From Candidatus Dormiibacterota bacterium (GTDB lineage Bacteria > Chloroflexota > Dormibacteria > Aeolococcales > Bog-877), in contig DAHUZL010000135.1 in the NCBI GenBank assembly GCA_027306655.1, positions 6,677-70,676 on the forward strand: a stretch of 64,000 nt of DNA. The letters are read 5' to 3'. This document shows positions 1,515-18,306 of this stretch, piece after piece; the first letter of the stretch is position 1; each line of letters opens with the position of its first letter. The notes beneath the pieces were generated by a model. The model was given only the letters and a program-made list of their open reading frames with translations. It was not told the origin of the DNA and searched no databases. The position numbers were made by a program, and so were the translations under genes.

Positions 1515-1910
1515 TCACGGGATTCGGGTCATGCCGGGGACCTCGTCGAAGGCTCGGTCGAAGCTCAGGATCGTCGTGATGCCGTGGCGCTGCATGACCG
1601 CGACGTGCAGGGAGTCACGTGCCGAGAGGAATCCATGGGTGGCCAGGATGTCCTTGGCCGACATGACGTCATGCTCGTCGATCGGCAGAACGTCATCGAC
1701 GACTCCGCGGAGCACGTTGAAGGCTGGCTGGATTGCGCTGCGCCGATCGATGGCCACATAGCGATGGAGGATCTCCTGAAATGCTTCGGCGTCGGCCACC
1801 AACCTCCGGCGCTCGGTGATCAACTGCTCGAGGGTGCGTTGGGCATCGATCTTGTGGGGATGGTGGGCACCGACGAGATACATCGGCACATTCGAGTCGA
1901 CCAGGATCAC
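1515..1910 (-). CDS. vapC: Type II toxin VapC (PIN-domain ribonuclease)
   Basis: Protein shows '[19 protein letters not shown]...[30 protein letters not shown]', consistent with PIN acidic residues. A GTG start at 1910 overlaps the vapB stop as GTGA. The longer ORF to 2075 is rejected because it lies in the vapB frame-shadow. Confidence 0.8.
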
Positions 1911-2164
1911 GGGCCCAAGCCGGTTCCGTAGCCGTCCTCGATGTCGGCGAGCATCGTCTCCACCGTGGTGGTCGGGAAATCGTGCCGTGCCGCCCTCCGT
2001 ACCGCGGAGAGCTTGGCATCGATCCGCCCGGTGGCGACCTCCCGGCCGGCGCTGCGGAGGGCCTGACGGACCCACTCCGAGAGGGTGAGCCCCCGGGACT
2101 CCGCGGACCGTATGTACTGGTCGATCTCGGCATCCGGAAGCACAACCTGGAGACGCTTACTCAC
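1907..2164 (-). CDS. vapB: Type II antitoxin VapB (ribbon-helix-helix/CopG-like)
   Basis: 85 aa, '[39 protein letters not shown]' fits an RHH fold. It lies directly upstream of vapC and is translationally coupled to it by a 4-nt overlap. Confidence 0.7.
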
Positions 2165-2529: not shown

Positions 2530-3759
2530 TCAGCCCCGGTCGGTGATGCGGAGGGGGAGCCTGCGACCCGCCCCGAGCAGCAGGATGGCGCCGACCGCGG
2601 CCACGACCGATGCGTAGAGGTACGCGGGCAACGGTCCTTGGGTGTAGAGGACGCCCATCACCAGGTTGCCCACCAACAGCCCGGCGCTGCGCGCGCCCGT
2701 GAGCATCCCCTGGGTCCGCCCCTGGGCGGAGGACGGGGCCAGGCTGGCCACCATCGTCGGCTCGACTGTCTCGATGACCCCCACCGCCGCGCCCAGCACC
2801 GCGACCGCGGCACCGAGGGAGATGATCGGCCCGCCGGTCGCGCTGAGCACGCCGAGTGCGAGCGTGGCGGCCGCGCTCAAACCGTAGCCGAGCAGCCCCA
2901 GCACCGGCACGGCGCGCCAGCGACTGTGCCCGATCGCGAACCCGACCAGCGCCGCTGCGCCCAGGAAGATGGCGTAGGCGATCACCCCGGCGCGGAGGGC
3001 ATGGGCGCCCTCGGCCACGGTGAGGACCGGGAAGCCGACGTTGTAGAAGCTGAAGCCGAAGAGCCCGGTCGCGATCAGGATGGCTCGCAGGGTGGTGCGC
3101 TCGACCGACCGCGCTGCGGCGGACGGGACCGGGACGACGACCGGCGGCGGGGCCGGCCGGCCGGCTCCGCGCTGCGGTCCCGGTCGGGGGCGCGCCAAAG
3201 ACAGGATGACCGTCGACAGCGCGAGCGGGGCCAGCGCCAGCAGGAAGACCCCGCGCAGGCTCCAGCCGAGGGTGAGGAGCCCGGCCAGGCCGAGCGTGGA
3301 CAGGAGCCCGCCCCCGAGGTCGAGGGCATTGAGGAGCCCGAAAGCGCGGCCGCGGTCCTGGGGCGCGACCGCCTCCGCCAGCATCGCCCGTCGGGACGGG
3401 TTGCGGAAGTTGCGCGCCCACCACCCCACCGCGAACAGGACGACGACCTGCCAGGGCGCGACCGCGAGCCCGATCAGCCCAAGGAGCGGGATCCCCGCAT
3501 TGCCGGCGAGCGCCACCCGGCGGTGCCCGTAGCGGTCACCGAGACGGCCGCCCACCACGGCGAGGAGCGAGCCGCCGCCATATCCGATCGCGGTCGCCAG
3601 CGCGAAGACCGGCGTCCCGGCGTGGAGCTCGACCACGAGGAGGAGCGGGAGGCCGGCGATGATCGACTGGTAGCCGAGGTCGGCCGCGGAGGCGGACAGG
3701 GTGATCGCGAGGACATCCCGGGTCACCCATCCAAAGCCGGGACGAATCCGGGGGTTCAT
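2530..3759 (-). CDS. MFS transporter
   Basis: 409 aa with 12 predicted hydrophobic segments. The Gly/Ala/Leu-rich helices and a 'GRLGDRYGHRRV' loop are typical of MFS. Confidence 0.8.
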   Translation of the reverse strand: MNPRIRPGFGWVTRDVLAITLSASAADLGYQSIIAGLPLLLVVELHAGTPVFALATAIGYGGGSLLAVVGGRLGDRYGHRRVALAGNAGIPLLGLIGLAVAPWQVVVLFAVGWWARNFRNPSRRAMLAEAVAPQDRGRAFGLLNALDLGGGLLSTLGLAGLLTLGWSLRGVFLLALAPLALSTVILSLARPRPGPQRGAGRPAPPPVVVPVPSAAARSVERTTLRAILIATGLFGFSFYNVGFPVLTVAEGAHALRAGVIAYAIFLGAAALVGFAIGHSRWRAVPVLGLLGYGLSAAATLALGVLSATGGPIISLGAAVAVLGAAVGVIETVEPTMVASLAPSSAQGRTQGMLTGARSAGLLVGNLVMGVLYTQGPLPAYLYASVVAAVGAILLLGAGRRLPLRITDRG

Positions 3760-3814: not shown

Positions 3815-5440
3815 TCAGCCTGCTCCGAGCTGGAGGGACACCGCGTCCAGCTCGGCCTCCGCCTCCGCCAGCCGATCCCGGCGGGCGCTCCGGGCCGGGG
3901 AGCCCGCCAGGGCGGACGCCCGTGCCCGCTCGACCGCCTCCGTCAGCGCGGGGACGATGCCAGCAGTGACGTCGTCGGCCTGGCGGCACCAGGTGGTGGC
4001 GGCCTCGTCGAGCGCACCCTGGGCGGCGTGGCGGAGCCGGCCCGCCAGCTGGTCCGCGCTCTCAGCCGCCTCGGCGTGCTGTGCACGGTCGCGCCAGCGC
4101 CGACCGATCGCCCCCGGGGCGCGGGCGCGCATCCCGCGCATCCCCACCGCCAGGGCGCCGGCGACGTCGGTGCGATCGATCGAGGCCCGGGTGACGGTGA
4201 GGACCGCCGGGGGCGCGGGCGGCCAGGCCAGCTCAACCGCCAACAGCTCTGAGGCGTCGGACAGGAAGCGGTCCCGAGCCGACCGAACCTGCTCGGCGAA
4301 TCGCGCCGCCCGGGGCGCCAGGTTGCGCTCCACCTCGCCTCGCACCTGCTCGCACCAGGCATCGGCGGATTCGGTCTGCAGGGCGGGCCAGCGCGACCGG
4401 TCCCTGGTCTCAGACAGCCGGATCGCCAGGGTCGAGCGGAGGCGGTCGGCCGCCGGCTCGACGATCGTCGTCCCGGCGGCCCGACACGCCTGCCGGAAGA
4501 CCGCCTTCGCCTCGTCGCTCGAGGTGCGCAGGACAGCCACAGCCAGGCCCAGCTGCTGACGATTGCTCTCGATCCTTGCATCGGGCAGTGAGAGGGATGC
4601 CTGCTCCAGGCGCAGCACCGAGACTGCCGCCGCGCGCTCCGCCCGACCCGCTGTGACCGCCCGCGTGTCGAGGATCTCGTTCCGGGCGGCGGCGACCTCG
4701 TCGACCAGCCATCGGCGCATCGCGGCGATCCCGTCGTCGCCACCGGGCTCCAGCGCTCTCCGCGCGGACACCGCGAAGAGGGGGACGGCGCCCCCGACGA
4801 CGTCGTCCAGCTGCCGGCGGACGAAGGCGATGGTCTCGCGTACGTCCGGCGGCGAGAGGCGATCCACCTTGTTGAGGCACACCCCGAGGCGGGCGTCCGC
4901 GTCCGAGACCAGGCGCATCTGGACCACCTCCGCGGCCGAGAGGGGCGCATCGGCGCTCAGGACCATGAGGGCGGCGTCGATCCGGGAGACGTACGCCGGC
5001 CATCCGAGCCGAGCCTCGACGATGCCGGCGCCATTGCCAAGGTTGTCCTGCTCGGTCACCGCCGCGCGCAGCCGCTCCAGCGGCCATGGCGCTCCCTCCC
5101 GATCGTCCTGGGTGGCCACCACCAGGCTGGGCCGCTCGGCCCATCGAACCAGGGTGGGGACGCCGGTGACGGGCACCGCCCCGGTGGGCAGGACGGCTTC
5201 GCCCAGGAGGGCGTTCATGATCGAGCTCTTGCCTCGCTTGAAGTCACCGACCACTGCCGCGACCACGGCCAGGTCCGCCAGCCTGTGTCGAGCCTCGCGG
5301 ATCCGCTCTCGCTGAGGCGGAGGGACCAGCGCACAGCGCTCGAGCCGGGCGAGCGCGTCCTCAAGCTTGGAGCGATCCCGATCCGCGCGGGCGGCCGGAC
5401 CGGTGGAGGGTCGCGCGGTCGGGCGGGTCACGGCGCGGAC
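3815..5440 (-). CDS. Dynamin-family (BDLP/IniA-like) GTPase. Start uncertain: the ORF is open to 5905 but overlaps the upstream gene.
   Basis: G1 'VVGDFKRGKSSIMNALLGEAVLPTG' and G4 'CLNKVDRL' are present. The G3 position reads 'IVEARLG' rather than 'VDTPG'. The protein is on the same strand as, and immediately downstream of, the Cys-repeat proteins and the Ehr operon. Confidence 0.5.
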   Translation of the reverse strand, partial: VRAVTRPTARPSTGPAARADRDRSKLEDALARLERCALVPPPQRERIREARHRLADLAVVAAVVGDFKRGKSSIMNALLGEAVLPTGAVPVTGVPTLVRWAERPSLVVATQDDREGAPWPLERLRAAVTEQDNLGNGAGIVEARLGWPAYVSRIDAALMVLSADAPLSAAEVVQMRLVSDADARLGVCLNKVDRLSPPDVRETIAFVRRQLDDVVGGAVPLFAVSARRALEPGGDDGIAAMRRWLVDEVAAARNEILDTRAVTAGRAERAAAVSVLRLEQASLSLPDARIESNRQQLGLAVAVLRTSSDEAKAVFRQACRAAGTTIVEPAADRLRSTLAIRLSETRDRSRWPALQTESADAWCEQVRGEVERNLAPRAARFAEQVRSARDRFLSDASELLAVELAWPPAPPAVLTVTRASIDRTDVAGALAVGMRGMRARAPGAIGRRWRDRAQHAEAAESADQLAGRLRHAAQGALDEAATTWCRQADDVTAGIVPALTEAVERARASALAGSPARSARRDRLAEAEAELDAVSLQLGAG

Positions 5441-6909
5441 GCCGCCGAACCGGGCTGACCGCTGGCCCCGGTGGGCGCCGAACCCGGGGGCCAGCTCCCG
5501 GCGCTGTCGAGCGCGCGCGGGTGCCATGCGCTCGCCTGCGTCTCCAGTCCGGACTCGAACCCCGAGCAGTACGCCGCCGCCCGGGCGGCGGCCCCGCCTT
5601 CGGCGCCCGCCGCCTCGTGCCGCGTGTCCCAGCTCTGCTTGCGGAGGACCTCGTCCAGCTCCCAGGTCAGCATCGCCAGCTGTGCGCGAGCGGCGACGAG
5701 AGCGGTGCGCGCCGCGCTCGTCTCCGAGGCGGCGGCGAGAACGTGGGGGAGGTCCCGCCAGCAGGACCCGGTGCCGGCCTGCTGATCGGCGACGCCGGCG
5801 GGGTCCAGCAGTCGGGCCGCGACCCACGCACTGCGGCGGACGGTTGCCACCTGTCGCTCCCGGCATCCGCGGCAGGGTCCGCGGTTGTCCAGCTGGCGGC
5901 GGCATCGGCTGACGAGCGCGGCGGGAGTCCGCGGTGCCGCTGACGGCCCGTCCTCATCGGCGAGCGCCTGGGCCAAGATCCGGGTGAGCTGTTCCGCCAG
6001 CATCGGAGCGCGGGAGGGGGCGGCGCGGGCGCACGCCCAGAGGTGTCGGCGGCAACCCCAGCGTGCCGCGGGGTCACTGGGGCTGGCCTCGCCGAGCTCG
6101 TCGGCGGCCCACGCGATCCATCGCCCCTCGGCGCGACGTCGATGGGCACAGACCGGACAGCCCTCCGGTCGCGGATCAGAACCGCCGGCGGACAGTCCCG
6201 CCGGGCCCGGCCGCCGTCGCGTTGCGTCGGAATCGCGGCCGGCGAGGACCGCGAGCCGGGCCCAGGTGAACGGCTCAGGCGGGGTGGGGTCAGGCCCGGG
6301 GGCGAGCTGGCGGCGGGCCAGGACGATCGCCGCGAGCGACTCCGCCGGAGAGAGCCGGCCCACCAGGCTCGTCGCGTGGACGACACAGAGCGCCTGGGCG
6401 CCTGCGGCGGCGGCGGCGATCTCGGGGTCGGCCAGGCCGGGACGCAGGAGCTCGATGCGGCGGTCGACCGACTCGGCGATACTGGTGCACGCCGGACAGG
6501 GGCGCTGGGGGCCGACGCGACGGGCGAGGAGCGCCGGCTCGGTGCGATCGAGCACGGTGAGGGCGCCTGCCACCGCCGCCGCCGCTGCCCGCACCACGGC
6601 GCCATGGACGACGGCGGCCATGCCGAGCTCGGCTCGGCCCGCCAGGTCGACCGCGTGCTGGGAGCAGAAGCCGCCGGCGTTGGCGATCTGCGCCAGGACG
6701 TCCGGATCGGAGTAGGACTCGGAGCAGAACCAGAACCAGTACCGCTCGGCGGTCCGTTGCTCCTCCCGGCAGAGCAGGCACCCGGGATCGGCGAGCTCCG
6801 CCGCCCAGGCGGCCCGCAGCTGGGCGCGGGTCGCCGAGGGCCGCCCCCGCCCGCGGAGGAGCCCGATCACCGCAGCAGGTCGACGGCCCCGGCCCATCCC
6901 CCGGTCCAG
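5428..6909 (-). CDS. Cys/Trp-rich repeat protein B. Four copies of a putative metal-binding module (CxxC ... C-x2-H-x-W). Function unknown.
   Basis: Repeats: 'CLLCREEQRTAERYWFWF...GFCSQHAV', 'CPACTS...ALCVVHAT', 'CPVCAHRRRAEGRWIAWA...RWGCRRHLWAC', 'CRGCRERQ...SCWRDLPH'. The opposite-strand ORFs are R/G/D-rich shadow frames. The start is approximate (M at 6909 or an internal GTG). Confidence 0.45.
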   Translation of the reverse strand: MDRGMGRGRRPAAVIGLLRGRGRPSATRAQLRAAWAAELADPGCLLCREEQRTAERYWFWFCSESYSDPDVLAQIANAGGFCSQHAVDLAGRAELGMAAVVHGAVVRAAAAAVAGALTVLDRTEPALLARRVGPQRPCPACTSIAESVDRRIELLRPGLADPEIAAAAAGAQALCVVHATSLVGRLSPAESLAAIVLARRQLAPGPDPTPPEPFTWARLAVLAGRDSDATRRRPGPAGLSAGGSDPRPEGCPVCAHRRRAEGRWIAWAADELGEASPSDPAARWGCRRHLWACARAAPSRAPMLAEQLTRILAQALADEDGPSAAPRTPAALVSRCRRQLDNRGPCRGCRERQVATVRRSAWVAARLLDPAGVADQQAGTGSCWRDLPHVLAAASETSAARTALVAARAQLAMLTWELDEVLRKQSWDTRHEAAGAEGGAAARAAAYCSGFESGLETQASAWHPRALDSAGSWPPGSAPTGASGQPGSAASAP

Positions 6910-7637
6910 GCGAGTCCCTCCACCCAGGCCGCCCGCTCCTCCGGGCCCACCGTCGGCCCCCGCCAGGTCATCGAGCGGCCGAACCGGGCGATCCGGCCGG
7001 CGAGGTCCTCCAGCGCCGACAGGCTGCGGAGGTGGTGGGGGTGGTCGGTGGGGCCGTCCAGCAGGTGGGGTCGGCAGAGCGGTCCGCCGCCGTCGAGGCA
7101 GAGGGGGCAGGCGCGCCGCTGCCACACCGGCTCCGTCGCCGCCACCAGCGCCATCGTGCGCCGGAGCCCCTCCATCGGTCGCATCGCCCGCAGCCAGCCG
7201 GCTCCGGGATGCGCGAGCGGGTTGTCGCCGGCCCGCTGCACCATCTCGATGAAGTCGCAGGTGAGACAGGGCCCGCGCTCCAGGAGCAGCCGGCGTCCGA
7301 CCGGCCAGGGCAGGCGGCAGGCGCGGCGCATCGCCCGGGCGGCCCGTGCGATGAGGTCCTCGTGGAGGACGGTGGTGGCGAAGGGGCGGCCACCCCTGCA
7401 CTCGATCTCCATCGCGGCGAACGCCCACCCGTGACGGCGGCACAACCCCCAGCTCCGCCACAGTTGATGGCGAACGTCGGCCACCATGATCGCGCCCCCG
7501 TCGAGCATCGACCAGACCTGGCGGAGCTCATCCACCTGGAGCGGCCTCTCGCGGAGGAGGGCTCGCGGGACGTGCGGCGCAGCCGCCATCTCGATTGCAT
7601 CCCCGTCCGCGCGGGCGGACCGACTCGGAGCCGGCAT
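6867..7637 (-). CDS. Cys/Trp-rich repeat protein A, a paralog of protein B with 2-3 modules
   Basis: 'WRSWGLCRRHGWAF', 'CLTCDFIEMV', 'CPLCLDGGGPLCRPHLL'. It is collinear with B modules ('WGxCRRHxWA ... RxCR ... GPCxxC'). The start codon is 1 nt past the stop of the NuoL-like gene. Confidence 0.45.
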   Translation of the reverse strand: MPAPSRSARADGDAIEMAAAPHVPRALLRERPLQVDELRQVWSMLDGGAIMVADVRHQLWRSWGLCRRHGWAFAAMEIECRGGRPFATTVLHEDLIARAARAMRRACRLPWPVGRRLLLERGPCLTCDFIEMVQRAGDNPLAHPGAGWLRAMRPMEGLRRTMALVAATEPVWQRRACPLCLDGGGPLCRPHLLDGPTDHPHHLRSLSALEDLAGRIARFGRSMTWRGPTVGPEERAAWVEGLAWTGGWAGAVDLLR

Positions 7638-7638
7638 C

Positions 7639-9732
7639 TCAGCGGATGAACAGGATGATGACGAACACCGCCACCACGTAGAGCAGGTAGAGGCTCACGC
7701 TGCCGGCCTGGAGGCGACCAGCGGCCCGCGACAGGCAGCGCGCGGCGCCGACCGCGGGCCGGTACACGTAGGCGTCGACCGGTTCCACCACCCGCCGGGC
7801 GTAGCGGAGGGAGCGGACGAAGTAGGGCGGCTGGTCGTAGTCGCCCTCGATCGCCCGCTGGGCGCGGAAGATGCCGCCGAAGATCGACCGGAACGGGTTG
7901 GTGAAGGCGGTCGCGGTGTACTGCATGGCGGGGTGCGGCTGAGCAATCGCACCGGCCCAGACCGCGGTCTCGCGGCGCGGCCGGCGACCGAGCAGGCGGA
8001 GCACACCGGCGGTGACGCCGATGACGATCGCGAGGGTGCAGAAGATGTAGGTGGGGGAGATGAAGGCGTCGGTGAAGCTGGTGGGGACGATGACCACCCC
8101 GTTGCCGGGGATCACCTGGTGGAGGAAGGTCGCCCCCAGGCGGACCGGGAGGGGGAACCGGCCGGGGTGGAGGAAGATCGGCGGCAGGACGGCGTCGAGC
8201 AGGCCGCGGACCCGGGTGGCGCTGCCGGCGGCCGCGGCCGCCGCCCCCACCCCCAGGGGCGGCACCAACGCGGTCAGCACCGCCGTGGCGGCGGTGACCA
8301 CCATGCCCAGCCGCATCGCCCAGGGCACCTCGCGGGCGCTCCGGGCGGCCTCGCTGCGGGCGACCCCGAGGAAGGTGCCGCCGACCACCCGCACGTAGGT
8401 GGTGACCGCGAGGGCGAAGGTCAGCGTCAAGAGCATCCCCGCCCCCGCCAGGGCGACCCGGCCCTCGGGGCTGCCGAGGATCCGGGCGCGGATCAGGACC
8501 TGCAGCCCCAGCCACTCGGTCTGGAAACCGTTCAGGGGGGGCACGCCGGCGAGCCCCATCGCCCCCAGGAAGAAGAGGAGGGTGGTCCAGCGCATGCGCC
8601 GGGCGAGCCCGCCGAGGCGGTCCATGTCGAGCTGATGGGTGGCGGTGTCGACACTGCCGGCGCCCATGAAGAGCGTGCTCTTGAGGAGGCCGTGGTAGAG
8701 CGTGTGGAGCAGGACCACGACCACCGCGGTGGCGGCGAGGAGCGGGTGGTGGCTCTGGCGGAAGACCAGCGCCGCGCCCAGCATCGCCACCATGAAGCCG
8801 AGGTTCTCGATCGTGCTGTAGGCGAGCATGCGCTTCAGGTCGGACACCAGCAGCGAGAACAGCACGCCATACAGGGCGGTGAGCACGCCCAGGCCGAGCG
8901 TGAGATAGCCCCACCAGGCTGCCGGCTCGGGCAGCAGCGTGACCAGGGCGAGCACGAGGCCGTAGATGCCCGTCTTCACGACCAGCCCGGAGAGGAGAGC
9001 CGAGACGTGGGCGGGCGCCGCCGGGTGCGCCTCCGGCAACCAGCCCTGGAGCGGCAGCAGGCCGGCCTTGACCCCGAAGCCGACCAGGAAGAGCACGAAG
9101 GCGGCCGAGGCCGCCGCCCCGCTGACCTGGGGGTGCCGGGCCAGCGCCACGAAGCTGACGCCGGGGTGGAGGGCGCCGACCAGCGCGAAGGCGACCACCA
9201 GGGCGAGGAAGCCCACCTTGGCCAGCGCCAGCAGCAGGAATGCCGCCTGGGGCCGGTGGGGTCGGTCGAACTCCACCGTCACCAACACGTAGCTGGCGAT
9301 CACCATGCACTCCCAGGCGACAAGGAACGTCACCGCATCGGCTGCGGCGACCACCACCACGATGGTGGCGAGGACGAGGGCGAGCAGCGCGTGGGCGGTG
9401 GCGCGACGCAGCGGCCCGCCAACATGGGCGGTGTAGGCGGCGGAGTAGAGGCAGACCCCGGTGCCGACGACGCCGGTGAGGAGGAGGAAGAGACCGCCGA
9501 GAGGCGTCGCCCGCACCGCGAACGCGCCGATCGGGGTCGACACCGGCAGGGCGGCATGGCCGTGCGCCCCGCCCAGCCAGAGAACGGCCGCCGCCACCGC
9601 GGCCAGGCTGGCGGCGACCCCCGCCGCCGCGGAGAGGTCACCGGCCGCCGGCCAGCGGGCGACCGAGAGCCCGATCGCCGCGGCGGCGATGTACGCGGCC
9701 AGGGCCGCGCCCAGGAGCTCAAGCGCCATCGC
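7639..9732 (-). CDS. NuoL/HyfB-like proton-pumping antiporter subunit of an Ehr/Hyf-type complex
   Basis: About 697 aa polytopic protein with 'WLPEAHPAAPAHVSALLSGLVVKTGIYG' and 'MLAYSTIENLGFM' (Mrp/NuoL signature). The start was chosen at 'MALELLGAAL' (9732). The ORF extension to 9954 overlaps the upstream gene. Confidence 0.8.
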   Translation of the reverse strand, partial: AMALELLGAALAAYIAAAAIGLSVARWPAAGDLSAAAGVAASLAAVAAAVLWLGGAHGHAALPVSTPIGAFAVRATPLGGLFLLLTGVVGTGVCLYSAAYTAHVGGPLRRATAHALLALVLATIVVVVAAADAVTFLVAWECMVIASYVLVTVEFDRPHRPQAAFLLLALAKVGFLALVVAFALVGALHPGVSFVALARHPQVSGAAASAAFVLFLVGFGVKAGLLPLQGWLPEAHPAAPAHVSALLSGLVVKTGIYGLVLALVTLLPEPAAWWGYLTLGLGVLTALYGVLFSLLVSDLKRMLAYSTIENLGFMVAMLGAALVFRQSHHPLLAATAVVVVLLHTLYHGLLKSTLFMGAGSVDTATHQLDMDRLGGLARRMRWTTLLFFLGAMGLAGVPPLNGFQTEWLGLQVLIRARILGSPEGRVALAGAGMLLTLTFALAVTTYVRVVGGTFLGVARSEAARSAREVPWAMRLGMVVTAATAVLTALVPPLGVGAAAAAAGSATRVRGLLDAVLPPIFLHPGRFPLPVRLGATFLHQVIPGNGVVIVPTSFTDAFISPTYIFCTLAIVIGVTAGVLRLLGRRPRRETAVWAGAIAQPHPAMQYTATAFTNPFRSIFGGIFRAQRAIEGDYDQPPYFVRSLRYARRVVEPVDAYVYRPAVGAARCLSRAAGRLQAGSVSLYLLYVVAVFVIILFIR

Positions 9733-10561
9733 GCGCCTCCCCGGCTCGCGGGGCGCGCTCGGTCGCCCGATCGATGGCCAGCAGCAGCCCGTGCAGGAGC
9801 GCCTGCGGGGTGGGCGGGCAGCCGGGCACGTAGACGTCGACCGGGAGGCAGCGGTCGAGCGGCCCCACCGTCGTCGGCCCGCCCGCGAAGCAGCCGCCGT
9901 GGATCGCACAGACCCCGGCCGCGAGGACCAGCTTGGGCGACGGCATCGCGGCATAGGTGGCCCGCAGCGCCGCCTCCATGTTCTCGGTCACCACCCCCGT
10001 GACCAGCAGGACGTCGGCATGCCGCGGGGTGGGGGTGAAGAAGATCCCGAGCCGGTGCAGGTCGACGTAGGGGGTGCCCAGCATCTGCAGCTCCGCCTCG
10101 CAGCCGTTGCAGGACCCGGCGTCGACGTGACGGATGTGGAGCGAGTGGCGGAACAACCGGTGGCCGTGGCGCCGCACCGCGTCCGCCGCCCGCGTCAGGG
10201 GACGCGGCGCGGGCGGGCGGCCGGGCTCCCAGCCCAGCTCCAGGGTGAGACGGCCGCGGTCACGCACGGCGACGCGCGGGTCGGGGTCGACGGCAAAGGC
10301 CTGCGGGAACGCCCGCACGCATCGCCCGCAGAGGACGCAGGCGCCCTGATCGAATCGGAGCGTTCCGGCGGCCTCGGTCCCGGTCGCGGTGAGCGCCGCC
10401 GTGGGGCAGAGGGCGGCCGCCGCCAGCGCATCGGCGGGTGTGAGCCCAGGCCAGCGGCAGGTGATCGACGACGGTGCCCCGTCGTCGCCCACGCCGGCCG
10501 GACGGGGAAAGCGCGTCGTCCGGGTCCCAGTCCGAAGGCCACAGGCGATCCACCGGCTCAT
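9719..10561 (-). CDS. Fused 4Fe-4S ferredoxin-like segment plus NuoB/HycG-like small subunit
   Basis: N-terminal 'CPTAAL...CVLCGRCVRAFP'. NuoB-like part: 'GSCNGCEAE', 'PRHADVLLVTGVV', 'GVCAIHGGCF', 'VPGCPP', so the four FeS Cys are retained. The ATG at 10561 overlaps the large-subunit stop as ATGA. Confidence 0.8.
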   Translation of the reverse strand: MSRWIACGLRTGTRTTRFPRPAGVGDDGAPSSITCRWPGLTPADALAAAALCPTAALTATGTEAAGTLRFDQGACVLCGRCVRAFPQAFAVDPDPRVAVRDRGRLTLELGWEPGRPPAPRPLTRAADAVRRHGHRLFRHSLHIRHVDAGSCNGCEAELQMLGTPYVDLHRLGIFFTPTPRHADVLLVTGVVTENMEAALRATYAAMPSPKLVLAAGVCAIHGGCFAGGPTTVGPLDRCLPVDVYVPGCPPTPQALLHGLLLAIDRATERAPRAGEARDGA

Positions 10562-12102
10562 CGGTCGAACTCCGCCACCGAGAGGTCGAAGCTGGCCTCG
10601 ATCACCGGGTAGTCGGTGAGGTTGTTGCCGCTGGCGCAGGCGTGGGCGTAGGGATGCCAGTTGACCACCGCCGGCGGTCGCGCGCGCCAGTGCCGCACCC
10701 GCCCGTCGCTGTCGAGCTCCACGAAGGCCAGGGTCTCGCCGCCGGGGGCCTCCGCCCAGCCGAGGGCGGCGCCGGCGCGGAGCTCCGGCGGTCCCATCGG
10801 GCCCGGGGCCTCGATCCAGACATCGAGGAGCCGTCGGAGCAGGCCGAGCGACGCGTCGATCTCGTCGAGGCGCACCTGCAGCCGTGCCGCCGCGTCGCCG
10901 TCGCGTCGCACCGGGACCCGGATCGGGAGCCCGGGGTAGGCGAGGTACGGGTGGTCGCGTCGCGCGTCGCAATCGGCTCCGGACGCCCGGCCGACAGGGC
11001 CGACCAGCTGGTGCCGCTCCGCATACGCGGGCTCCAGCACCGCGGTGGTGTCGAGGCGGTCCAGGAACGTCGAGGTCTCGTCGAGGAGCGCGCGCAGCGC
11101 CGACGCTCGATCGGCCCACCCGTCCACCCGCCGGCGCAGGTGGTGGGGGACGACCGAGGGCTGGATGGCGTCGGCCCCGCCGATGGACAGGCACCCGCGC
11201 AGGTACCGGTGGCCGGTGAGGTCGGCGGCGGTGCGCAGGAGCTCCTCGGTGAGGAGCCCGTACTGGGCGCTCGCCACCAGCAGGCCGGTGGCGTCGGCGA
11301 GGCGCGTGACCGCGGCGCAGTGGCTGCGCACGCGCTCCAGCTCGGCCAGGCAGGTCCGGGTCCACTCCGCGGCGGGGCCGACCGCGATGCCGGCGGCGCG
11401 CTCCACCGCCCGGGCGAAGGCGAGGGCGGTGGCGAAGCTGGAGGTCCCGGCCAGCCGCTCGGCGAAGACGAGGGCCCGGTCCGCCGGCAGTCCCTCGGCC
11501 ATCCGCTCCAGGGCCCGGAACTTGTAGCCAAGGCGCGGGCTGACCTGGACCAGGTCCTCCCCACCGGAGCTGAAGAGGAACGCGGCCGACTCCTGGGGCC
11601 CGCTGCGGACCGGGCCGAGGGGGAGCTGGACGAGACCCTGGCCCTCGACGGCCGGTCCGAAGGCGGGGCGCGGGTCCGCCCCGGCCGGGAACTCGGGCGC
11701 CGATGGCGACCGCAGCGGCGGAGCGCCCGGCGAGAGGTGGCGCCGCAGCGGGGCCGGGCGCGGGTGCCCGATCGGCTCCAGCCCGTGAGCCTCCCAGATC
11801 TCGCGTTCGTACCAGCTCGCCGCATGCACGATCGGGGTGAGCGAGGCGAAGGTCGTCCCCTGCAGCTCCGTCGAGAGGACGAGCCACTGCGGGTCGCCGT
11901 GGAGCTGGAGGACGGCGGTGAGCCGGGGTCGGCGCGCGTCGTCGGCGGTGGCGAAGAGGTCGGCGAGGACCGCCGGTCCGGCGAGCCCGGCGACCAGCTC
12001 GGTGAACACCGCCTCGGGGCAGCTCGCCTGCAGCTCGTCGTCGGCCACCGCCCGCGTCCGCAGGCCGCGGTCCTCCGCCAGCTGGCGAAGGGATCGGGTC
12101 AT
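10558..12102 (-). CDS. NuoC+NuoD fused HycE-like 'large subunit' lacking NiFe-binding cysteines
   Basis: 514 aa. NuoC-like 'ASWYEREIWEAHGLEP'. NuoD-like 'LPLGPVRSGPQESAAFLF...RLGYKFRALE'. C-terminus 'NWHPYAHACASGNNLTDYPVIEASFDLSVAEFDR'. No N-terminal RxCxxC motif and no C-terminal DPCxxC motif is present. Confidence 0.8.
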   Translation of the reverse strand: MTRSLRQLAEDRGLRTRAVADDELQASCPEAVFTELVAGLAGPAVLADLFATADDARRPRLTAVLQLHGDPQWLVLSTELQGTTFASLTPIVHAASWYEREIWEAHGLEPIGHPRPAPLRRHLSPGAPPLRSPSAPEFPAGADPRPAFGPAVEGQGLVQLPLGPVRSGPQESAAFLFSSGGEDLVQVSPRLGYKFRALERMAEGLPADRALVFAERLAGTSSFATALAFARAVERAAGIAVGPAAEWTRTCLAELERVRSHCAAVTRLADATGLLVASAQYGLLTEELLRTAADLTGHRYLRGCLSIGGADAIQPSVVPHHLRRRVDGWADRASALRALLDETSTFLDRLDTTAVLEPAYAERHQLVGPVGRASGADCDARRDHPYLAYPGLPIRVPVRRDGDAAARLQVRLDEIDASLGLLRRLLDVWIEAPGPMGPPELRAGAALGWAEAPGGETLAFVELDSDGRVRHWRARPPAVVNWHPYAHACASGNNLTDYPVIEASFDLSVAEFDR

Positions 12103-13580
12103 CGCCGCACCTCGCGAGCCGCGTCGGCGAGCAGGGTGTGGAGGGGCCCGGGAACGAAGACGCCGAGGACCAGGACCGCCGCCAGGAGGACATAGCCAGG
12201 GAGCAGGACCGCCGCTCCGAGCTCGGCCCGCCGCGGGAGCGGGTCGGCCCGACCCTCGCCGAACACCATCGTGCTGAAGGGGGCGACCAGGGCGAGGAAC
12301 CCCACCAGCAGGAGGAGGGCGATCAGGCCGGCGGCGCCGAAGGCGCGGGCCCCGATCCCGCCCGCGACGATCGACGCCTCCGAGAGGAAGAGCCCGAACG
12401 GAGGCGCTCCCGCGATGGCGAGGGCCCCGGCCAGCACCAGGACGGCGGCCGCCGGGGCGACCCGGATCATGCCTCGGACCTCGCTGATGGTGGTGGTGCG
12501 GAAGCGGAGGAGGAGGTTGCCGGCGTTGAAGAACATGAGGCACTTGGCGAGGCTGTGGGCCAGCATCTGGAGCAGCGCGCCGAACACCGCCAGGGGGGCG
12601 CCCAGCCCGAAGCCGGCGGCGATCAGGCCCATCTGGTCGACCGACGAGTAGGCCAGCAGTCGCTTGTAGTCGCGCTGGGAGACGAGGAAGACGACCCCCA
12701 CGGCCATCGAGAGGAGCCCGAAGGCGAGCAGGGCGGAGTGAAGCTCGCTGCCCCCGTGCTGCGCCGGGGTGGCCAGCGCCAGCACCCGGACGATCGCGAG
12801 CATGGCGCAGTTGAGCTCGGCGCCGGACAGCATCGAGCAGATCGGGGCAGGGGCCTGGCTGTGCGCGTCGGGGAGCCAGGTGTGCATCGGCGCCAGCCCG
12901 GCCTTGGTGCCGAAGCCGACGAGCACCAAGAGGAACCCCAGGGTGGCGAGAGTGGGGGAGAGATGGGGCCCCGCGGCGCGCAGGACGGGGATCGCGAAGT
13001 TGTAGCTGCCGCCGAGCCACCCGACCGCCGACGCGTAGAGGCACAGGAATCCGAACAGGGCGATCAGCTCGCCCGCCACCGCCAGCATGATGAACTTCCA
13101 CGCTGCCTCCAGAGGACCGTGGGACCCGTAAAAGTCGACCAGCGGAGCGGAGGCGAATGTGGTTGCGGTCACCGCGGTCCACAGCAGGCCGAGGTTGCCG
13201 GCCACCGTGGCCGCCACCATGGTGAAGACGAAGAGGTGGAAGAGGGCGAAGTACCGGCGCGTCTCGCCGGCGCGCAGGGTGTGGACGTTCGCGGAGGAGC
13301 GGAAGTAGGCGATCGAGTAGAGGGCGGCCAGCGCGGAGACCAGCGTCACGATCAGGAGCGCGAGCGCACCGAGGTGGTCAAGGTAGAGCCAGTCGCCGAA
13401 CGCCGTGAACCGGCCCCGCTGCACCACCCGGGCGACCAGCGTGAGTCCCAGACCGAGGCCCACGAGTGCGGTCGGGACGACCAGGATCAGGCGCAGGTCA
13501 TCCCCCGGCACCAGCCAGGTCGCGACCGCGGCGGCCAGCGGCACCGCCAGCACGGCGAGCAGGAGCGCGGCGTCGATCAT
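12099..13580 (-). CDS. NuoN/NuoM/HyfF-like antiporter subunit
   Basis: Start at 'MIDAALLLAV'. Motifs 'GFGTKAGLAPMHTWLPDAHSQAPAPICSMLSG' and 'LLAYSSVDQMG'. The upstream R/P-rich ORF extension is rejected. The gene overlaps its neighbour by 4 nt. Confidence 0.75.
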   Translation of the reverse strand: MIDAALLLAVLAVPLAAAVATWLVPGDDLRLILVVPTALVGLGLGLTLVARVVQRGRFTAFGDWLYLDHLGALALLIVTLVSALAALYSIAYFRSSANVHTLRAGETRRYFALFHLFVFTMVAATVAGNLGLLWTAVTATTFASAPLVDFYGSHGPLEAAWKFIMLAVAGELIALFGFLCLYASAVGWLGGSYNFAIPVLRAAGPHLSPTLATLGFLLVLVGFGTKAGLAPMHTWLPDAHSQAPAPICSMLSGAELNCAMLAIVRVLALATPAQHGGSELHSALLAFGLLSMAVGVVFLVSQRDYKRLLAYSSVDQMGLIAAGFGLGAPLAVFGALLQMLAHSLAKCLMFFNAGNLLLRFRTTTISEVRGMIRVAPAAAVLVLAGALAIAGAPPFGLFLSEASIVAGGIGARAFGAAGLIALLLLVGFLALVAPFSTMVFGEGRADPLPRRAELGAAVLLPGYVLLAAVLVLGVFVPGPLHTLLADAAREVRR

Positions 13581-14221
13581 CCGCGCAGCCGGGTGAGCTC
13601 GGAGGTGTCGGTGCTGAAGACCTCCTCGCGCATCCGAGCCAGCAGGAAGGACATCACCACTACCGCGATCAGGACGTCGAGGACCAGGGCGAACTCGATC
13701 AGCAGGCTCAGCCGCGGCGCCAGCACCAGCCCGATCAGGAGGAGCCCGTTCTCGGCCGCCAGCAGGCCCCCCATCTGGAGCACGCCGTCGCGTCGGGCGG
13801 TGGTGGTGAAGAGGCCGAGGAGCAGGACGGCGATGCCGATGCCGAGGTCGGCCCCGGGGAGGAGATGGGACGGCGAGGGGATCCGGCTGGCCGCGATGAA
13901 GCCGGCCAGCGACAGGGCGGCGCCGAGCAGGAGCGCGGTGGGGAACCCCACGTGGTAGGAGCTCTCCCGACCGGCGCTGAGGGCGACCCGCATCCGCCGG
14001 CGCAGAAGGGTGGGGATCGCCACCCCCTTGAGGGACACGATCAGCAGGCCGAAGAGGAGCAGCTCCGTCAGGTGGGTGTGGACGAAGAGAGCGATCGCGA
14101 TGCCGCCGAGCAGCCACGACTGGAGCTGGTAGGCGCCCACCGCCGTGCGCAGGCGACGGGCCACGATCAGCTGGAAGCTGACCAAAAGGAAGAGGGCCGC
14201 GAGGGTGATCTCAGGCAGCAC
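13577..14221 (-). CDS. HyfE/HycP-like small membrane subunit
   Basis: 214 aa with about 7 TM segments, positioned between the NuoH-like and NuoN-like genes as in hyf/hyc operons. Confidence 0.65.
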   Translation of the reverse strand: MLPEITLAALFLLVSFQLIVARRLRTAVGAYQLQSWLLGGIAIALFVHTHLTELLLFGLLIVSLKGVAIPTLLRRRMRVALSAGRESSYHVGFPTALLLGAALSLAGFIAASRIPSPSHLLPGADLGIGIAVLLLGLFTTTARRDGVLQMGGLLAAENGLLLIGLVLAPRLSLLIEFALVLDVLIAVVVMSFLLARMREEVFSTDTSELTRLRG

Positions 14222-14263: not shown

Positions 14264-15295
14264 TCACCGCCCCAGGGTGGAGAGCACCAGGCCCAGGAAC
14301 GCGAGCACGAAGCTGCCCCCGAGGTACTCGGGCACGCGCATGATCCGGATCTTGGCGAGCGCGGACTCGATCACCACGATCAGGAAGGCGGCGGCCAGCA
14401 TCTTGCCGACGAGCGTGGCGATCGCCACCGCGAAGGCGGGGACGGTCACCGCTCCCGCCAGTCCGGGGGGGAAGACCAGCACGTTGAGCCAGACCACCAG
14501 CACCACGAAGAGCTTCATGGCGCCTCCCCATTCCATCAGCGCCTGGTCAGAACCGGCGTACTCGAACAGGCGGGAGGACTCGATCATGGAGAGCTCCTGG
14601 GCGCTGTTGGGGTTGTCGATCGGGAGCCGTCCGGTCTCGGCCAGGACCACCATCAGGAAGGCGGCCGCGATCAGCGCATGGCTCGGGGTGATCGCGGCGG
14701 AGCTGGTGAAGAGGGTCTGGTTGACCACGAACGGCACCGTCCCGCCGGAGATGAACCCGACCGCGAAGAACACCACGATGAAGGTGGGCTCAGCCAGCGA
14801 GGAGACGAAGCGGGACCGGCTCGCGCCCAGGCCGCCGTAGACGCTGCCGCTGTCCATCGCCGCCAGGTTGGTGAAGAAGCCGCCGATGCCGATGACGAAC
14901 CCGCTCCCCACCATGTCGGCCATGAACGCCCAGCTGAGCGGGGCGGCGGTGAGGACCGGGATGAGGACGGCGAAGGCGATCGGCGTCGCGAAGACCACGT
15001 AGGGGGCGACGCGGAAGATGAACGAGGCGTCAGGGGTGGTGGAGCGGTCCTTGCCGAAGAGCTTGCGGAGGTCGCGGTAGGGCTGCAGCGGTGACGGCCC
15101 CCGCCGCGACTGCAGCCTCGCCTTGCCGGTCTCGATCACCCCCTTCAGCAGGGGCGCGAGCGCGAGCACGACCAGCAGCGCGACTACCTGGCCGACCGCG
15201 TCGGCTAGCACGTGGCACCCCAGGTGGACCCGATCGAGGCTCGCGCCATCCCCCAACTCCCGAAAGGCCTTCCGGTCTTCGTGGTCAGGGGCCAT
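14264..15295 (-). CDS. NuoH/HycD/HyfC-like membrane subunit
   Basis: 'APLLKGVIETGKARLQSRRGPSPLQPYRDLRKLF' is the NuoH/HycD N-terminal signature. It is the first gene of the operon. The true start is probably an internal GTG near 15211. Confidence 0.75.
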   Translation of the reverse strand: MAPDHEDRKAFRELGDGASLDRVHLGCHVLADAVGQVVALLVVLALAPLLKGVIETGKARLQSRRGPSPLQPYRDLRKLFGKDRSTTPDASFIFRVAPYVVFATPIAFAVLIPVLTAAPLSWAFMADMVGSGFVIGIGGFFTNLAAMDSGSVYGGLGASRSRFVSSLAEPTFIVVFFAVGFISGGTVPFVVNQTLFTSSAAITPSHALIAAAFLMVVLAETGRLPIDNPNSAQELSMIESSRLFEYAGSDQALMEWGGAMKLFVVLVVWLNVLVFPPGLAGAVTVPAFAVAIATLVGKMLAAAFLIVVIESALAKIRIMRVPEYLGGSFVLAFLGLVLSTLGR

Positions 15296-17391: not shown

Positions 17392-18306
17392 TCAGAGGTG
17401 GATGGTGGGGACCCCGCCGGCGGTCACCTGGAGGGCGGCCCACATCCCGGCCGGCTCGTGGCCGGGCACCAGGCAGGCGATCCGGTAGCTCCCGGCCGCC
17501 CCCGTGACGAAGTGGAAGGTGGCGTGGCCCCCGGGGGCCACCCCCTTGACCGGGTCGGGCAGGGCGGCGCCGGCGAAGACCGGGGTCGTCCCGGTGGCGG
17601 TGACCACCGCTGCCGAGTGGTTGAGGCTGGCGACATTGCTGAAGTCGACCGTCACCGTCCAGCCGGTGGGGATCCCGATTCGCATCCCCCCCGAGGTGGT
17701 GCCGTTGTAGTCGAGGCCGTCGTTCACGTTGCCGTAGCCGGCGACCAGCTGGAGGGTGACGGTCCGGGCGGCGGCGTCGTAGCGAAGCCAGCGATCCAGC
17801 GAGACGGTCGCCGCCGTCGGGGTCGGACGCGGGCGGGGGCTCGGGCGCGCGCTCGGGCTGGGGTGGGGGCTCCGCACCGGGGACGTGCTCTGGGGCAGGA
17901 CGGCGCCGGACGGCGAGGCCGCGGGGAGGTGGACGTCGAGGGTGGCCGTGATCAGGCCGTCGATCAGGACCGCGATCCGGCCGCGGTGCCGGGTCTGCCC
18001 GTCGACCGTCCATCCCGTCAGCGGGGGCGCCCCTGGCAGCCGCGCCGAGGGCCCCAGCCGGGCGGTGAGCCCGCAGGGGATGGAGAGGGTGCTGGTCGGT
18101 TGGTCGAGGAGGGTGGACCGGCCCCCGACGGTGGCCATCGCTCCGGCCACCGGGTGGCCGCCCCGGAGCGGCAGGGAGACGGTGAGCGAGCACCCGGAGC
18201 CCGTGGCCGGGGAGTTGAGCGGGCCCCGGCCGCAGCCGCCCACGGTGAGCGCGGCGGCGACGAGGCAGCCGCCGAGGGCGACCGCCCGGGTCGTGGGCTG
18301 GGCCAT
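17392..18306 (-). CDS. Lipoprotein with a C-terminal type-1 copper (cupredoxin/sulfocyanin-like) domain
   Basis: N-terminal signal with lipobox-like 'LTVGGC'. P/S-rich linker 'SPHPSPSARPSPRPRPTPT'. Copper ligands 'HATFHF ... IACLVPGHEPAGMW' (His...Cys-x4-His-x4-Met). The upstream part of the 655-aa ORF is rejected. Confidence 0.6.
   Translation of the reverse strand: MAQPTTRAVALGGCLVAAALTVGGCGRGPLNSPATGSGCSLTVSLPLRGGHPVAGAMATVGGRSTLLDQPTSTLSIPCGLTARLGPSARLPGAPPLTGWTVDGQTRHRGRIAVLIDGLITATLDVHLPAASPSGAVLPQSTSPVRSPHPSPSARPSPRPRPTPTAATVSLDRWLRYDAAARTVTLQLVAGYGNVNDGLDYNGTTSGGMRIGIPTGWTVTVDFSNVASLNHSAAVVTATGTTPVFAGAALPDPVKGVAPGGHATFHFVTGAAGSYRIACLVPGHEPAGMWAALQVTAGGVPTIHL

Follow-up and report, generated by a model that had tools for sequence, protein, structure and literature searches.

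Three genes packed behind a hydrogenase-related operon

We analysed a 64,000-nucleotide stretch of contig DAHUZL010000135.1 (assembly GCA_027306655.1, Candidatus Dormiibacterota bacterium; positions 6,677 to 70,676 of the forward strand), referred to below as the window. Its minus strand carries a six-gene operon for a hydrogenase-related (Ehr) complex, and behind the last structural gene lie two genes for Cys/Trp-rich repeat proteins, A and B, and one for a dynamin-like GTPase. A first-pass annotation had taken these three genes to be an extension of the operon, and we describe them here as a possible accessory module of ion-translocating membrane complexes. The tail genes, and one feature within the GTPase gene, are the following.

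6867..7637, minus strand: protein A, assigned by profile alignment as a divergent single-module member of the DUF6062 superfamily, 256 aa from the ATG at 7637
5428..6870, minus strand: protein B, assigned as a two-module DUF6062 protein, 480 aa (Pfam DUF6062, PF19538, E 2.2e-6)
3815..5431, minus strand: bacterial dynamin-like GTPase by its Pfam match, 538 aa (Dynamin_N, E 2.2e-13, HMM positions 2-79 of 168 only)
4994..4999, minus strand: junction of a 28-residue in-frame deletion in the GTPase, between P145 and A146 (11-sequence alignment)

The NuoL/HyfB-like gene that closes the Ehr operon ends with a TGA at 7641-7639, and protein A can open at the ATG at 7637-7635, 1 nt past this stop. The stop of A, which ends at 6867 (TGA, 6869-6867), overlaps the GTG at 6870-6868 with which B starts, and the stop of B (TGA, 5430-5428) overlaps the GTG at 5431-5429 with which the GTPase starts, both as 4-nt GTGA overlaps. 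The overlapping or abutting junctions that had been described thus stand, but the approximate starts given for B (6909) and the GTPase (5440) have to be replaced by 6870 and 5431. The GTPase gene stops at 3815 and the ATG of a major facilitator superfamily (MFS) gene lies at 3759, which gives the 55-nt spacer reported earlier. As called here, B (480 aa) is identical to the database gene call P0001 and the GTPase (538 aa) to the database protein P0019.

The start of A is uncertain. Public gene calls begin at 7589 (240 aa), 7535 (222 aa) and 7508 (213 aa), the conserved part sets in at about residue 32, and the best Shine-Dalgarno-like sequence (GAGAGG) belongs to the GTG at 7535, with conservation reaching a few residues upstream of it. 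Depending on the start chosen, A opens from 1 to about 130 nt behind the NuoL-like gene.

Because the window has a G+C content of about 74%, long open reading frames alone are weak evidence for genes. Judging by their homologs (16 for A, a family of 1750 representatives for B, and matches of the GTPase to Dynamin_N and to solved bacterial dynamin-like proteins, BDLPs), the three frames are real genes and not high-GC artefacts. Their arrangement indicates that A, B and the GTPase are translationally coupled and packed as an extension of the six-gene operon, and the tight packing proposed earlier holds. Scans of the tail region for promoters, terminators and Rfam families returned nothing, a result of little weight since the promoter model was of the E. 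coli sigma-70 type.

A and B as one- and two-module DUF6062 proteins

B passes the DUF6062 gathering threshold marginally (27.7 versus 27 bits) over residues 27-170, which correspond to its first module, and precomputed annotations of its homologs also give DUF6062. Four ligand sites can be read along the protein (C31/C34/C69/H72, C125/C128/C162/H165, C238/C241/C273/H276 and C333/C336/C370/D373); the window protein retains all ligands, with the final His changed to Asp, as in one other member. Alignments of 40 and of 10 members showed four units of CxxC, about 35 residues and CxxH to be invariant, together with several Trp residues. An exhaustive profile search gathered 1750 representatives (clusters at 50% identity) at E<=1e-3 and 688 at E<=1e-10, mostly 430-530 aa long; the family size rests on this search, a word-index search with B having matched only 2 proteins. 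As the N-terminal and C-terminal halves of B are homologous (hhalign 99.4%, E 1.5e-21), B is by this comparison a tandem duplication of a two-site module of about 200 aa, the size of the Pfam model. It differs from that model in being a double module and in its C-terminal motif, W-EL-E--RK--W--R-E--G-E.

Sixteen homologs of A, all metagenomic, share the motifs WGxCxxHxW, CxxC and CPxC-x7-CxxH, and the invariant residues are W63, G64, C66, H69 and W71, C124 and C127, C177 and C180, and C188 and H191. A has no Pfam match; it is too diverged for the DUF6062 model and has lost the first CxxC. By hhalign, its profile matches module 1 of the B family (96.6%, E 6.6e-10), which supports the earlier suggestion that A and B are related Cys/Trp-rich repeat proteins. 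On these alignments, A and B are one- and two-module members of the DUF6062 superfamily.

AlphaFold2 models of B (pLDDT 83.8, pTM 0.83) and A (pLDDT 88.1, pTM 0.83) are all-alpha, and the ligand pairs of the B model sit at helix N-termini. Both are thus predicted to be helical-bundle proteins with one putative three-Cys-one-His metal site per ~100 residues. The zinc-ribbon-like character originally ascribed to them had to be abandoned, the all-alpha predicted secondary structure ruling it out. No relative of the two models was found among the solved structures of the PDB, and weak matches of the B profile to bS18 among PDB sequences (E 1e-3) were judged to be Cys/Arg composition matches. A search of the literature found no mention of DUF6062. 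B thus has a named Pfam family, although an uncharacterised one.

A dynamin-like GTPase that lacks G3

The GTPase contains a G1 motif (GDFKRGKS, residues 62-69), the switch-I Thr and a G4 motif (NKVD, residues 187-190). Its family profile matched, among PDB entries, the Nostoc BDLP 2j68 (1.5e-29), the C. jejuni DLP 5owv, IniA 6j72 and mitofusin. The dynamin-family assignment made at first is borne out by these matches and by Dynamin_N, and they place the protein in the BDLP/mitofusin class. With the BDLPs (Nostoc BDLP1, C. jejuni DLP1/2, mycobacterial IniA, B. subtilis DynA) and the mitofusins, the best PDB matches being 2j68, 5owv and 6j72, it shares G1, the switch-I Thr, G4 and a length of ~540-580 aa, and its C-terminal region, which is conserved within its own clade, is presumably helical as in these proteins.

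Unlike these proteins, the window GTPase is without the 28 residues that hold G3 and the start of switch II. The segment is kept in all 10 aligned homologs, where G3 reads DTPG in nine and DMPG in P0020, and its loss explains why the Dynamin_N match stops at model position 79. The G1-G4 set is accordingly incomplete, with the G3 DxxG and switch II gone. An assembly error is unlikely to account for the deletion, because the identical 538-aa protein is encoded on an independently assembled Logan contig (L002) seen in 2 samples. Canonical GTP hydrolysis by this protein seems unlikely from its motifs. We know of no other bacterial dynamin-like protein without G3, although no specific search was made, and a naturally occurring dynamin without G3 would count among the few pseudo-GTPases of its class.

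The Ehr complex has Fe-S ligands and no NiFe site

The operon upstream of A consists of six genes, which we compared with their counterparts on contigs L008, L046 and L047.

14264..15295, minus strand: NuoH/HycD-like subunit, first gene of the operon (Pfam NADHdh, E 9.6e-30; 89% identity to the second Ehr operon of L008)
13577..14221, minus strand: small membrane subunit (HyfE/NuoK-like), 214 aa (position and size as in L046, L047 and L008)
12099..13580, minus strand: antiporter-like subunit (NuoN/HyfF-like), 493 aa (Pfam Proton_antipo_M, E 5.7e-41; gene call as in L046)
10558..12102, minus strand: large subunit (fused NuoC-NuoD/HycE-like), 514 aa (Pfam Complex1_30kDa and Complex1_49kDa)
9719..10561, minus strand: NuoB/HycG-like subunit, 280 aa (Pfam Oxidored_q6, E 2.7e-28; 280-aa call also in L046)
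7639..9729, minus strand: NuoL/HyfB-like antiporter-type subunit, 696 aa, last structural gene (Pfam Proton_antipo_M, E 3.9e-49)

The subunit set is complete, with NuoH-, NuoB- and NuoCD-like proteins, two antiporter-like subunits and one small membrane subunit (from Pfam and the gene calls of L046 and L047), in agreement with the six structural genes annotated at first. The small membrane subunit has no Pfam match in the window copy and is 89% identical to its L008 counterpart. The NuoL/HyfB-like protein matches the NCBIfam family for hydrogenase 4 subunit B (E 8.6e-152, under the family cut-off), and its exact 696-aa sequence is present in the database. The large subunit reads LGYKFRALERMAEG and, in its C-terminal part, DLSVAEFDR; a CxxC is missing from both NiFe sites, in line with the absence of a NiFe site noticed before, and the NiFe cysteines are absent at both sites in five related Ehr large subunits as well. 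The translation of the NuoB-like subunit shows SCNGCE, GVCAIHGG and VPGCPP, which we read as cluster ligands, as in NuoB-type subunits. On this evidence the complex is complex-I/group-4-hydrogenase-like, with a large subunit without NiFe cysteines and a NuoB-like subunit that retains the Fe-S (iron-sulfur) cysteines.

Ehr complexes are widespread relatives of complex I and include a dormancy-regulated operon of M. tuberculosis. That operon, Rv0082-Rv0087, presumably resembles the one described here in its six subunits, its large subunit without NiFe cysteines and its conserved NuoB-like Fe-S ligands. Recurrent accessory genes are among the few handles on what Ehr complexes do. Our literature search found no description of Ehr operons with DUF6062 or dynamin-like genes.

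Two local features of the operon were recorded. The N-terminal ~100 aa of the NuoB-like subunit (10260-10561) form an extension with CVLCGRCVRAFP and an upstream ...CP motif, and the sequence resembles a degenerate ferredoxin domain of the HycF/NuoI type that has been fused to NuoB. A local patch of ~80 nt that is hypervariable or recombined (11657-11736; residues ~123-149 of the large subunit) accounts for about one third of all differences between the window and L046; it encodes a Pro/Ser/Ala-rich N-terminal stretch that may be a linker between the NuoC-like and NuoD-like parts.

Each gene kind recurs beside Ehr operons in other lineages

For the B family, 34 loci, among them 2 from a scan of a genome collection with a 10-sequence alignment (both Bipolaricaulota) and 30 from a metagenome scan, were reduced to 12 lineages at 55% identity, and neighbours were counted per lineage within 8 kb. 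Genes were called with our own codon-score caller, which reproduces the public gene calls of L003 and L008 (the window B was added by hand), and clustered by BLAST, with Pfam run on the cluster representatives.

Of the 5 lineages of the GTPase clade, 3 (L008, L049 and the window) have the gene next to an Ehr operon; A is so placed in 3 of 5 arrangements (including L003 and L047) and B in 2 of 12 lineages, namely that of the window and the Rubrobacteraceae contig L023. The Ehr types in these linked loci are only 35-50% identical to each other and none has the NiFe cysteines. On L008, a first operon (Ehr-1) is followed directly after its NuoL-like gene by the dynamin-like gene, then by two MutS-domain-V ATPases and a second operon (Ehr-2) that is the orthologue of the window Ehr (68-89% identity). 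On L049, a fourth Ehr type is divergent from DUF190, a dynamin-like gene, two small genes and an MFS gene. The dynamin-like gene adjoins only the MutS-domain-V pair on L010 and L011, and the clade members on these four contigs are 34-38% identical to the window protein. On L023, the NuoL-like gene belongs to a further Ehr type and B begins 3 nt behind it; this B is 97% identical to a Rubrobacteraceae protein whose 90% cluster includes Rubrobacter calidifluminis and R. naiadicus. B and dynamin-like genes co-occur without Ehr on L025 and L031, an MFS gene lies close to the dynamin-like gene on L049 and L025, and Dormibacteria-labelled members occur both in the dynamin-like clade and in the B family. 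The neighbours of B, counted over the 12 lineages, were as follows.

MFS transporter: 7 of 12
Na+/H+ exchanger: 5 of 12
Usp: 5 of 12
P-type-ATPase-like: 4 of 12
MutS-domain-V pair: 3 of 12
Dynamin-like: 3 of 12
Ehr: 2 of 12

In 11 of the 12 lineages, B has a transporter or an Ehr operon no further than 8 kb away, and the most constant neighbours of the family are membrane transporters (MFS, CPA-type exchangers, P-type-ATPase-like proteins and the antiporter-like proteins of Ehr) together with universal stress proteins (Usp). The clade of the window GTPase, for its part, neighbours Ehr, the MutS-domain-V pair and MFS genes, not a second dynamin-like gene, iniB/C or leoB/C. The neighbourhood comparison suggested by the first-pass annotation gave support that is real yet partial: each gene kind does recur near Ehr elsewhere, but most B homologs have neither Ehr nor dynamin-like neighbours.

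Several neighbours deserve description in their own right. L008 (1-17728) is a close relative in which two Ehr operons stand in tandem on one strand, parted only by the dynamin-like gene and the MutS-domain-V pair. The latter consists of two MutS-domain-V-only proteins of ~510-550 aa (L008:8001-13016, L010:1062-6002, L011:4560-9740) with weak best matches to MutS, MutS2 and the KamC reactivase ATPase; it also stands beside B homologs on L016, L017, L034, L036 and L037, and its place next to both the dynamin-like clade and DUF6062 proteins is conserved, although the window has no copy. The P-type-ATPase-like genes lie directly downstream of B homologs (cluster c22: L017:3677-5206, L019 and L020; cluster c74: L016:9551-9919 and L023:9374-9844), and their products have actuator, nucleotide-binding and HAD domains with almost no membrane domain, or a HAD-type C-terminal fragment only. 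On Bipolaricaulota-like contigs (L001:8691-12375, L012, L014, L021, L033), a CPA-type Na+/H+ exchanger gene overlaps the start of B, and B in turn overlaps a gene for a conserved 269-aa protein without family assignment.

The locus varies among close relatives

The order in the window is thioesterase and methyltransferase genes, the Ehr-2-type operon, A, B, the dynamin-like gene, MFS, a small open reading frame and PIN. L046, a second strain 99.3% identical to the window, has the same order from Ehr through A to B, where its contig ends; it differs by 3 substitutions in A and, over the part of B that it covers, by 1. On L047, the same Ehr-2 type is followed by A (56% identical, same direction) and then by DapF, with no B or dynamin-like gene. 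L003/L004 carry the Ehr-1 paralogue in opposite orientation, divergent from A, which is again followed by DapF. On L005, MFS comes straight after A, and Ehr, B and the GTPase are all missing; L006/L007 have A alone. AIM24 is ~93% identical in the closest relatives, L003 and L005.

2530..3759, minus strand: MFS transporter (Pfam MFS_1, E 1.5e-27), 55 nt downstream of the GTPase

The window MFS protein is 76% identical to the one encoded right after the A homolog of L005, and it probably belongs to the same conserved neighbourhood as the tail genes. Just downstream of it (1515-2143, minus strand) lie a PIN-domain toxin gene and its small upstream partner of 78 aa; L005 also has a PIN gene and a small partner after its MFS gene (73% and 56% identity).

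A possible accessory module for ion-translocating complexes

The above findings suggest a link between the tail genes and Ehr. Since each kind recurs beside Ehr in distant lineages, with other paralogues and in other orientations, the recurrence is hard to ascribe to chance alone and the link is probably functional; that the kinds also recur beside each other where no Ehr is found argues for linkage too. Two further points support it: the gene order is kept in the 99.3% identical strain, and the invariant residues of A and B are all Cys, His and Trp (G64 of A aside). We tentatively favour, at a little under an even chance, the reading that A, B and the GTPase make up an accessory or regulatory module, not described before, that serves ion-translocating complexes of the membrane. 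BDLP, DUF6062 and Ehr are all known families, and it is their association that appears to be new, with no description found in the literature; likewise, the view that no described system corresponds to the three genes was upheld by our literature and defence-system searches.

Because the steadiest neighbours of B are membrane transporters and stress proteins, DUF6062 proteins could act as cytoplasmic partners of ion-translocating membrane modules, with a regulatory or assembly-related role. In the window, the partner would be the antiporter-like arm of Ehr, the MFS transporter or both. The DUF6062 sites would probably be zinc-thiolate or Fe-S sites responsive to metal or redox state. The dynamin-like protein may bind and shape, or maintain, the membrane that holds the ion-translocating modules; the window copy, lacking canonical GTP hydrolysis, might be a nucleotide-binding scaffold or a gene in decay. 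An analogy, meant as a likeness of function only, may be drawn with zinc-thiolate redox switches such as the ZAS anti-sigma factors (RsrA) and with ancillary subunits of cation/proton antiporters such as KefF/KefG, which work with KefC/KefB: helical bundles and Cys/His sites at helix ends are shared, and B genes follow and overlap CPA-type Na+/H+ exchanger genes on L001, L012 and L014.

Several observations weigh against an accessory module. The association of the gene kinds with Ehr is partial: A, B and the GTPase occur as a trio in one species only (the window and L046), some A homologs (L005, L006) have no Ehr in reach, and neither does B in 10 of 12 lineages. The loci were gathered by pattern-based scans; they are a non-random sample, described here by plain counts. 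The window GTPase is the most divergent of its clade (34-38% identity, versus 43-52% among the others), and its divergence and loss of G3 fit decay as well as a new role. As the locus from thioesterase to MFS is rearranged in every relative examined, the juxtaposition could reflect a recombination hot spot. Finally, every functional step set out above is inferred.

These observations bear most directly on an alternative that we consider unlikely, yet serious: that independent stress or housekeeping genes have come to lie side by side in a rearrangement-prone locus, sharing read-through transcription at most, with the dynamin-like gene decaying. The direct succession of A and MFS on L005, where Ehr, B and the GTPase are missing, and of A and DapF on L003 and L047 would be expected from such a locus, as would Ehr operons placed in either orientation and as different paralogues, B lineages that mostly lack Ehr or dynamin-like neighbours, and a strongly diverged GTPase without G3. 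Recurrence of all three kinds beside Ehr in other lineages and phyla, with varied paralogues and orientations, is on the other hand the usual signature of functional coupling, and mere juxtaposition sits poorly with intact reading frames joined by 4-nt overlaps and with an arrangement kept in a second strain. A specific role in maturation or assembly, in which the GTPase would help the Cys/His proteins to supply Ehr with a metal or an Fe-S cluster, in analogy to HypA/HypB, seems to us distinctly improbable. The genes do stand at the tail of an operon for a complex with Fe-S ligands in its NuoB-like subunit, three-Cys-one-His sites are conserved in A and B, and the G domain of the L008 dynamin-like protein weakly matches HydF (E 2.4e-9, far under the cut-off). 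However, all that is shared with HypA/HypB and UreE/UreG is the outline of a P-loop GTPase and Cys-rich proteins at the tail of a hydrogenase-like operon: A, B and the GTPase show no similarity to HypA, HypB, UreG, CooC or Nif/Isc/Suf factors in Pfam and NCBIfam, which agrees with their having been described as unrelated to HypAB. The analogy to a maturation GTPase that had been drawn is weak, since the metallocentre GTPases known so far belong to the SIMIBI class rather than to the dynamins, and the window protein is of the dynamin class without G3. Moreover, the complex has no NiFe site, most B homologs neighbour transporters that do not require a metal centre (MFS and Na+/H+), and L047 has the same Ehr type without B or GTPase.

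Less probable still is that A and B are novel Fe-S electron carriers that supply the missing electron-input or output module of Ehr. Some Fe-S clusters are ligated by three Cys and one His, B offers four sites of this kind, and Ehr operons encode no NuoEFG-like or FdhF-like input module; but the main partners of B are non-redox transporters, the relatives L047 and L003 have Ehr without B, where we take the complex to work without it, and the predicted helical bundle with ligand pairs at helix N-termini would fit structural or sensory zinc sites better. Some defence systems contain dynamin-like proteins, and wider B neighbourhoods hold AAA/STAND-like ATPases, TPR and HEAT proteins, MutS-like ATPases and a metallophosphoesterase, all of which could suit an anti-phage or conflict system of the LeoABC/Eleos type built around the dynamin-like protein. 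We rejected this reading as highly improbable: the PADLOC match to LeoA is at the level of the P-loop only (18.2 bits, residues 19-78), A and B have no match there, the score for the NCBIfam LeoA/HP0731 subfamily is 11.9 bits versus a cut-off of 325, LeoB and LeoC partners are missing, no B homologs were found on plasmids or viral contigs, and the remainder of the window is ordinary chromosomal metabolism.

A broader form of the accessory-module reading is more speculative, and we regard it as rather unlikely. DUF6062 proteins, the dynamin-like clade and the MutS-domain-V pair might together constitute a system that senses redox or metal state and regulates, assembles or repairs ion-translocating machines. 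Such a system would span Dormibacterota-like bacteria, Rubrobacteraceae and Bipolaricaulota, its targets would be Ehr, CPA antiporters, MFS transporters and P-type-ATPase-like proteins, and the window dynamin would be a pseudo-GTPase adaptor within it.

If a tie to a respiratory-type complex is true, it would widen the known roles of bacterial dynamin-like proteins. For DUF6062, a large family whose predicted fold matches nothing solved, a tie to transporters and energy coupling offers a concrete hypothesis. Two cultured species, R. calidifluminis and R. naiadicus, possess close homologs of the B protein on L023 (WP_273842965.1, WP_273887606.1), and the arrangement of B behind Ehr may therefore be experimentally accessible.

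Other observations in the window

Near the Ehr locus, a gene at 17392-18306 encodes a sulfocyanin-like cupredoxin-domain protein. A 575-aa protein encoded at 44100-45827 matches DUF6909 end to end (E 4e-187), and its gene adjoins an alpha-glucan-phosphorylase-like gene. The closest metagenome-assembled genomes are labelled Verrucomicrobiae, Candidatus Micrarchaeia and Solirubrobacteraceae despite encoding members of the same 90%-identity clusters as the window proteins; since contradictory labels are attached to near-identical proteins, some public taxon labels must be wrong.

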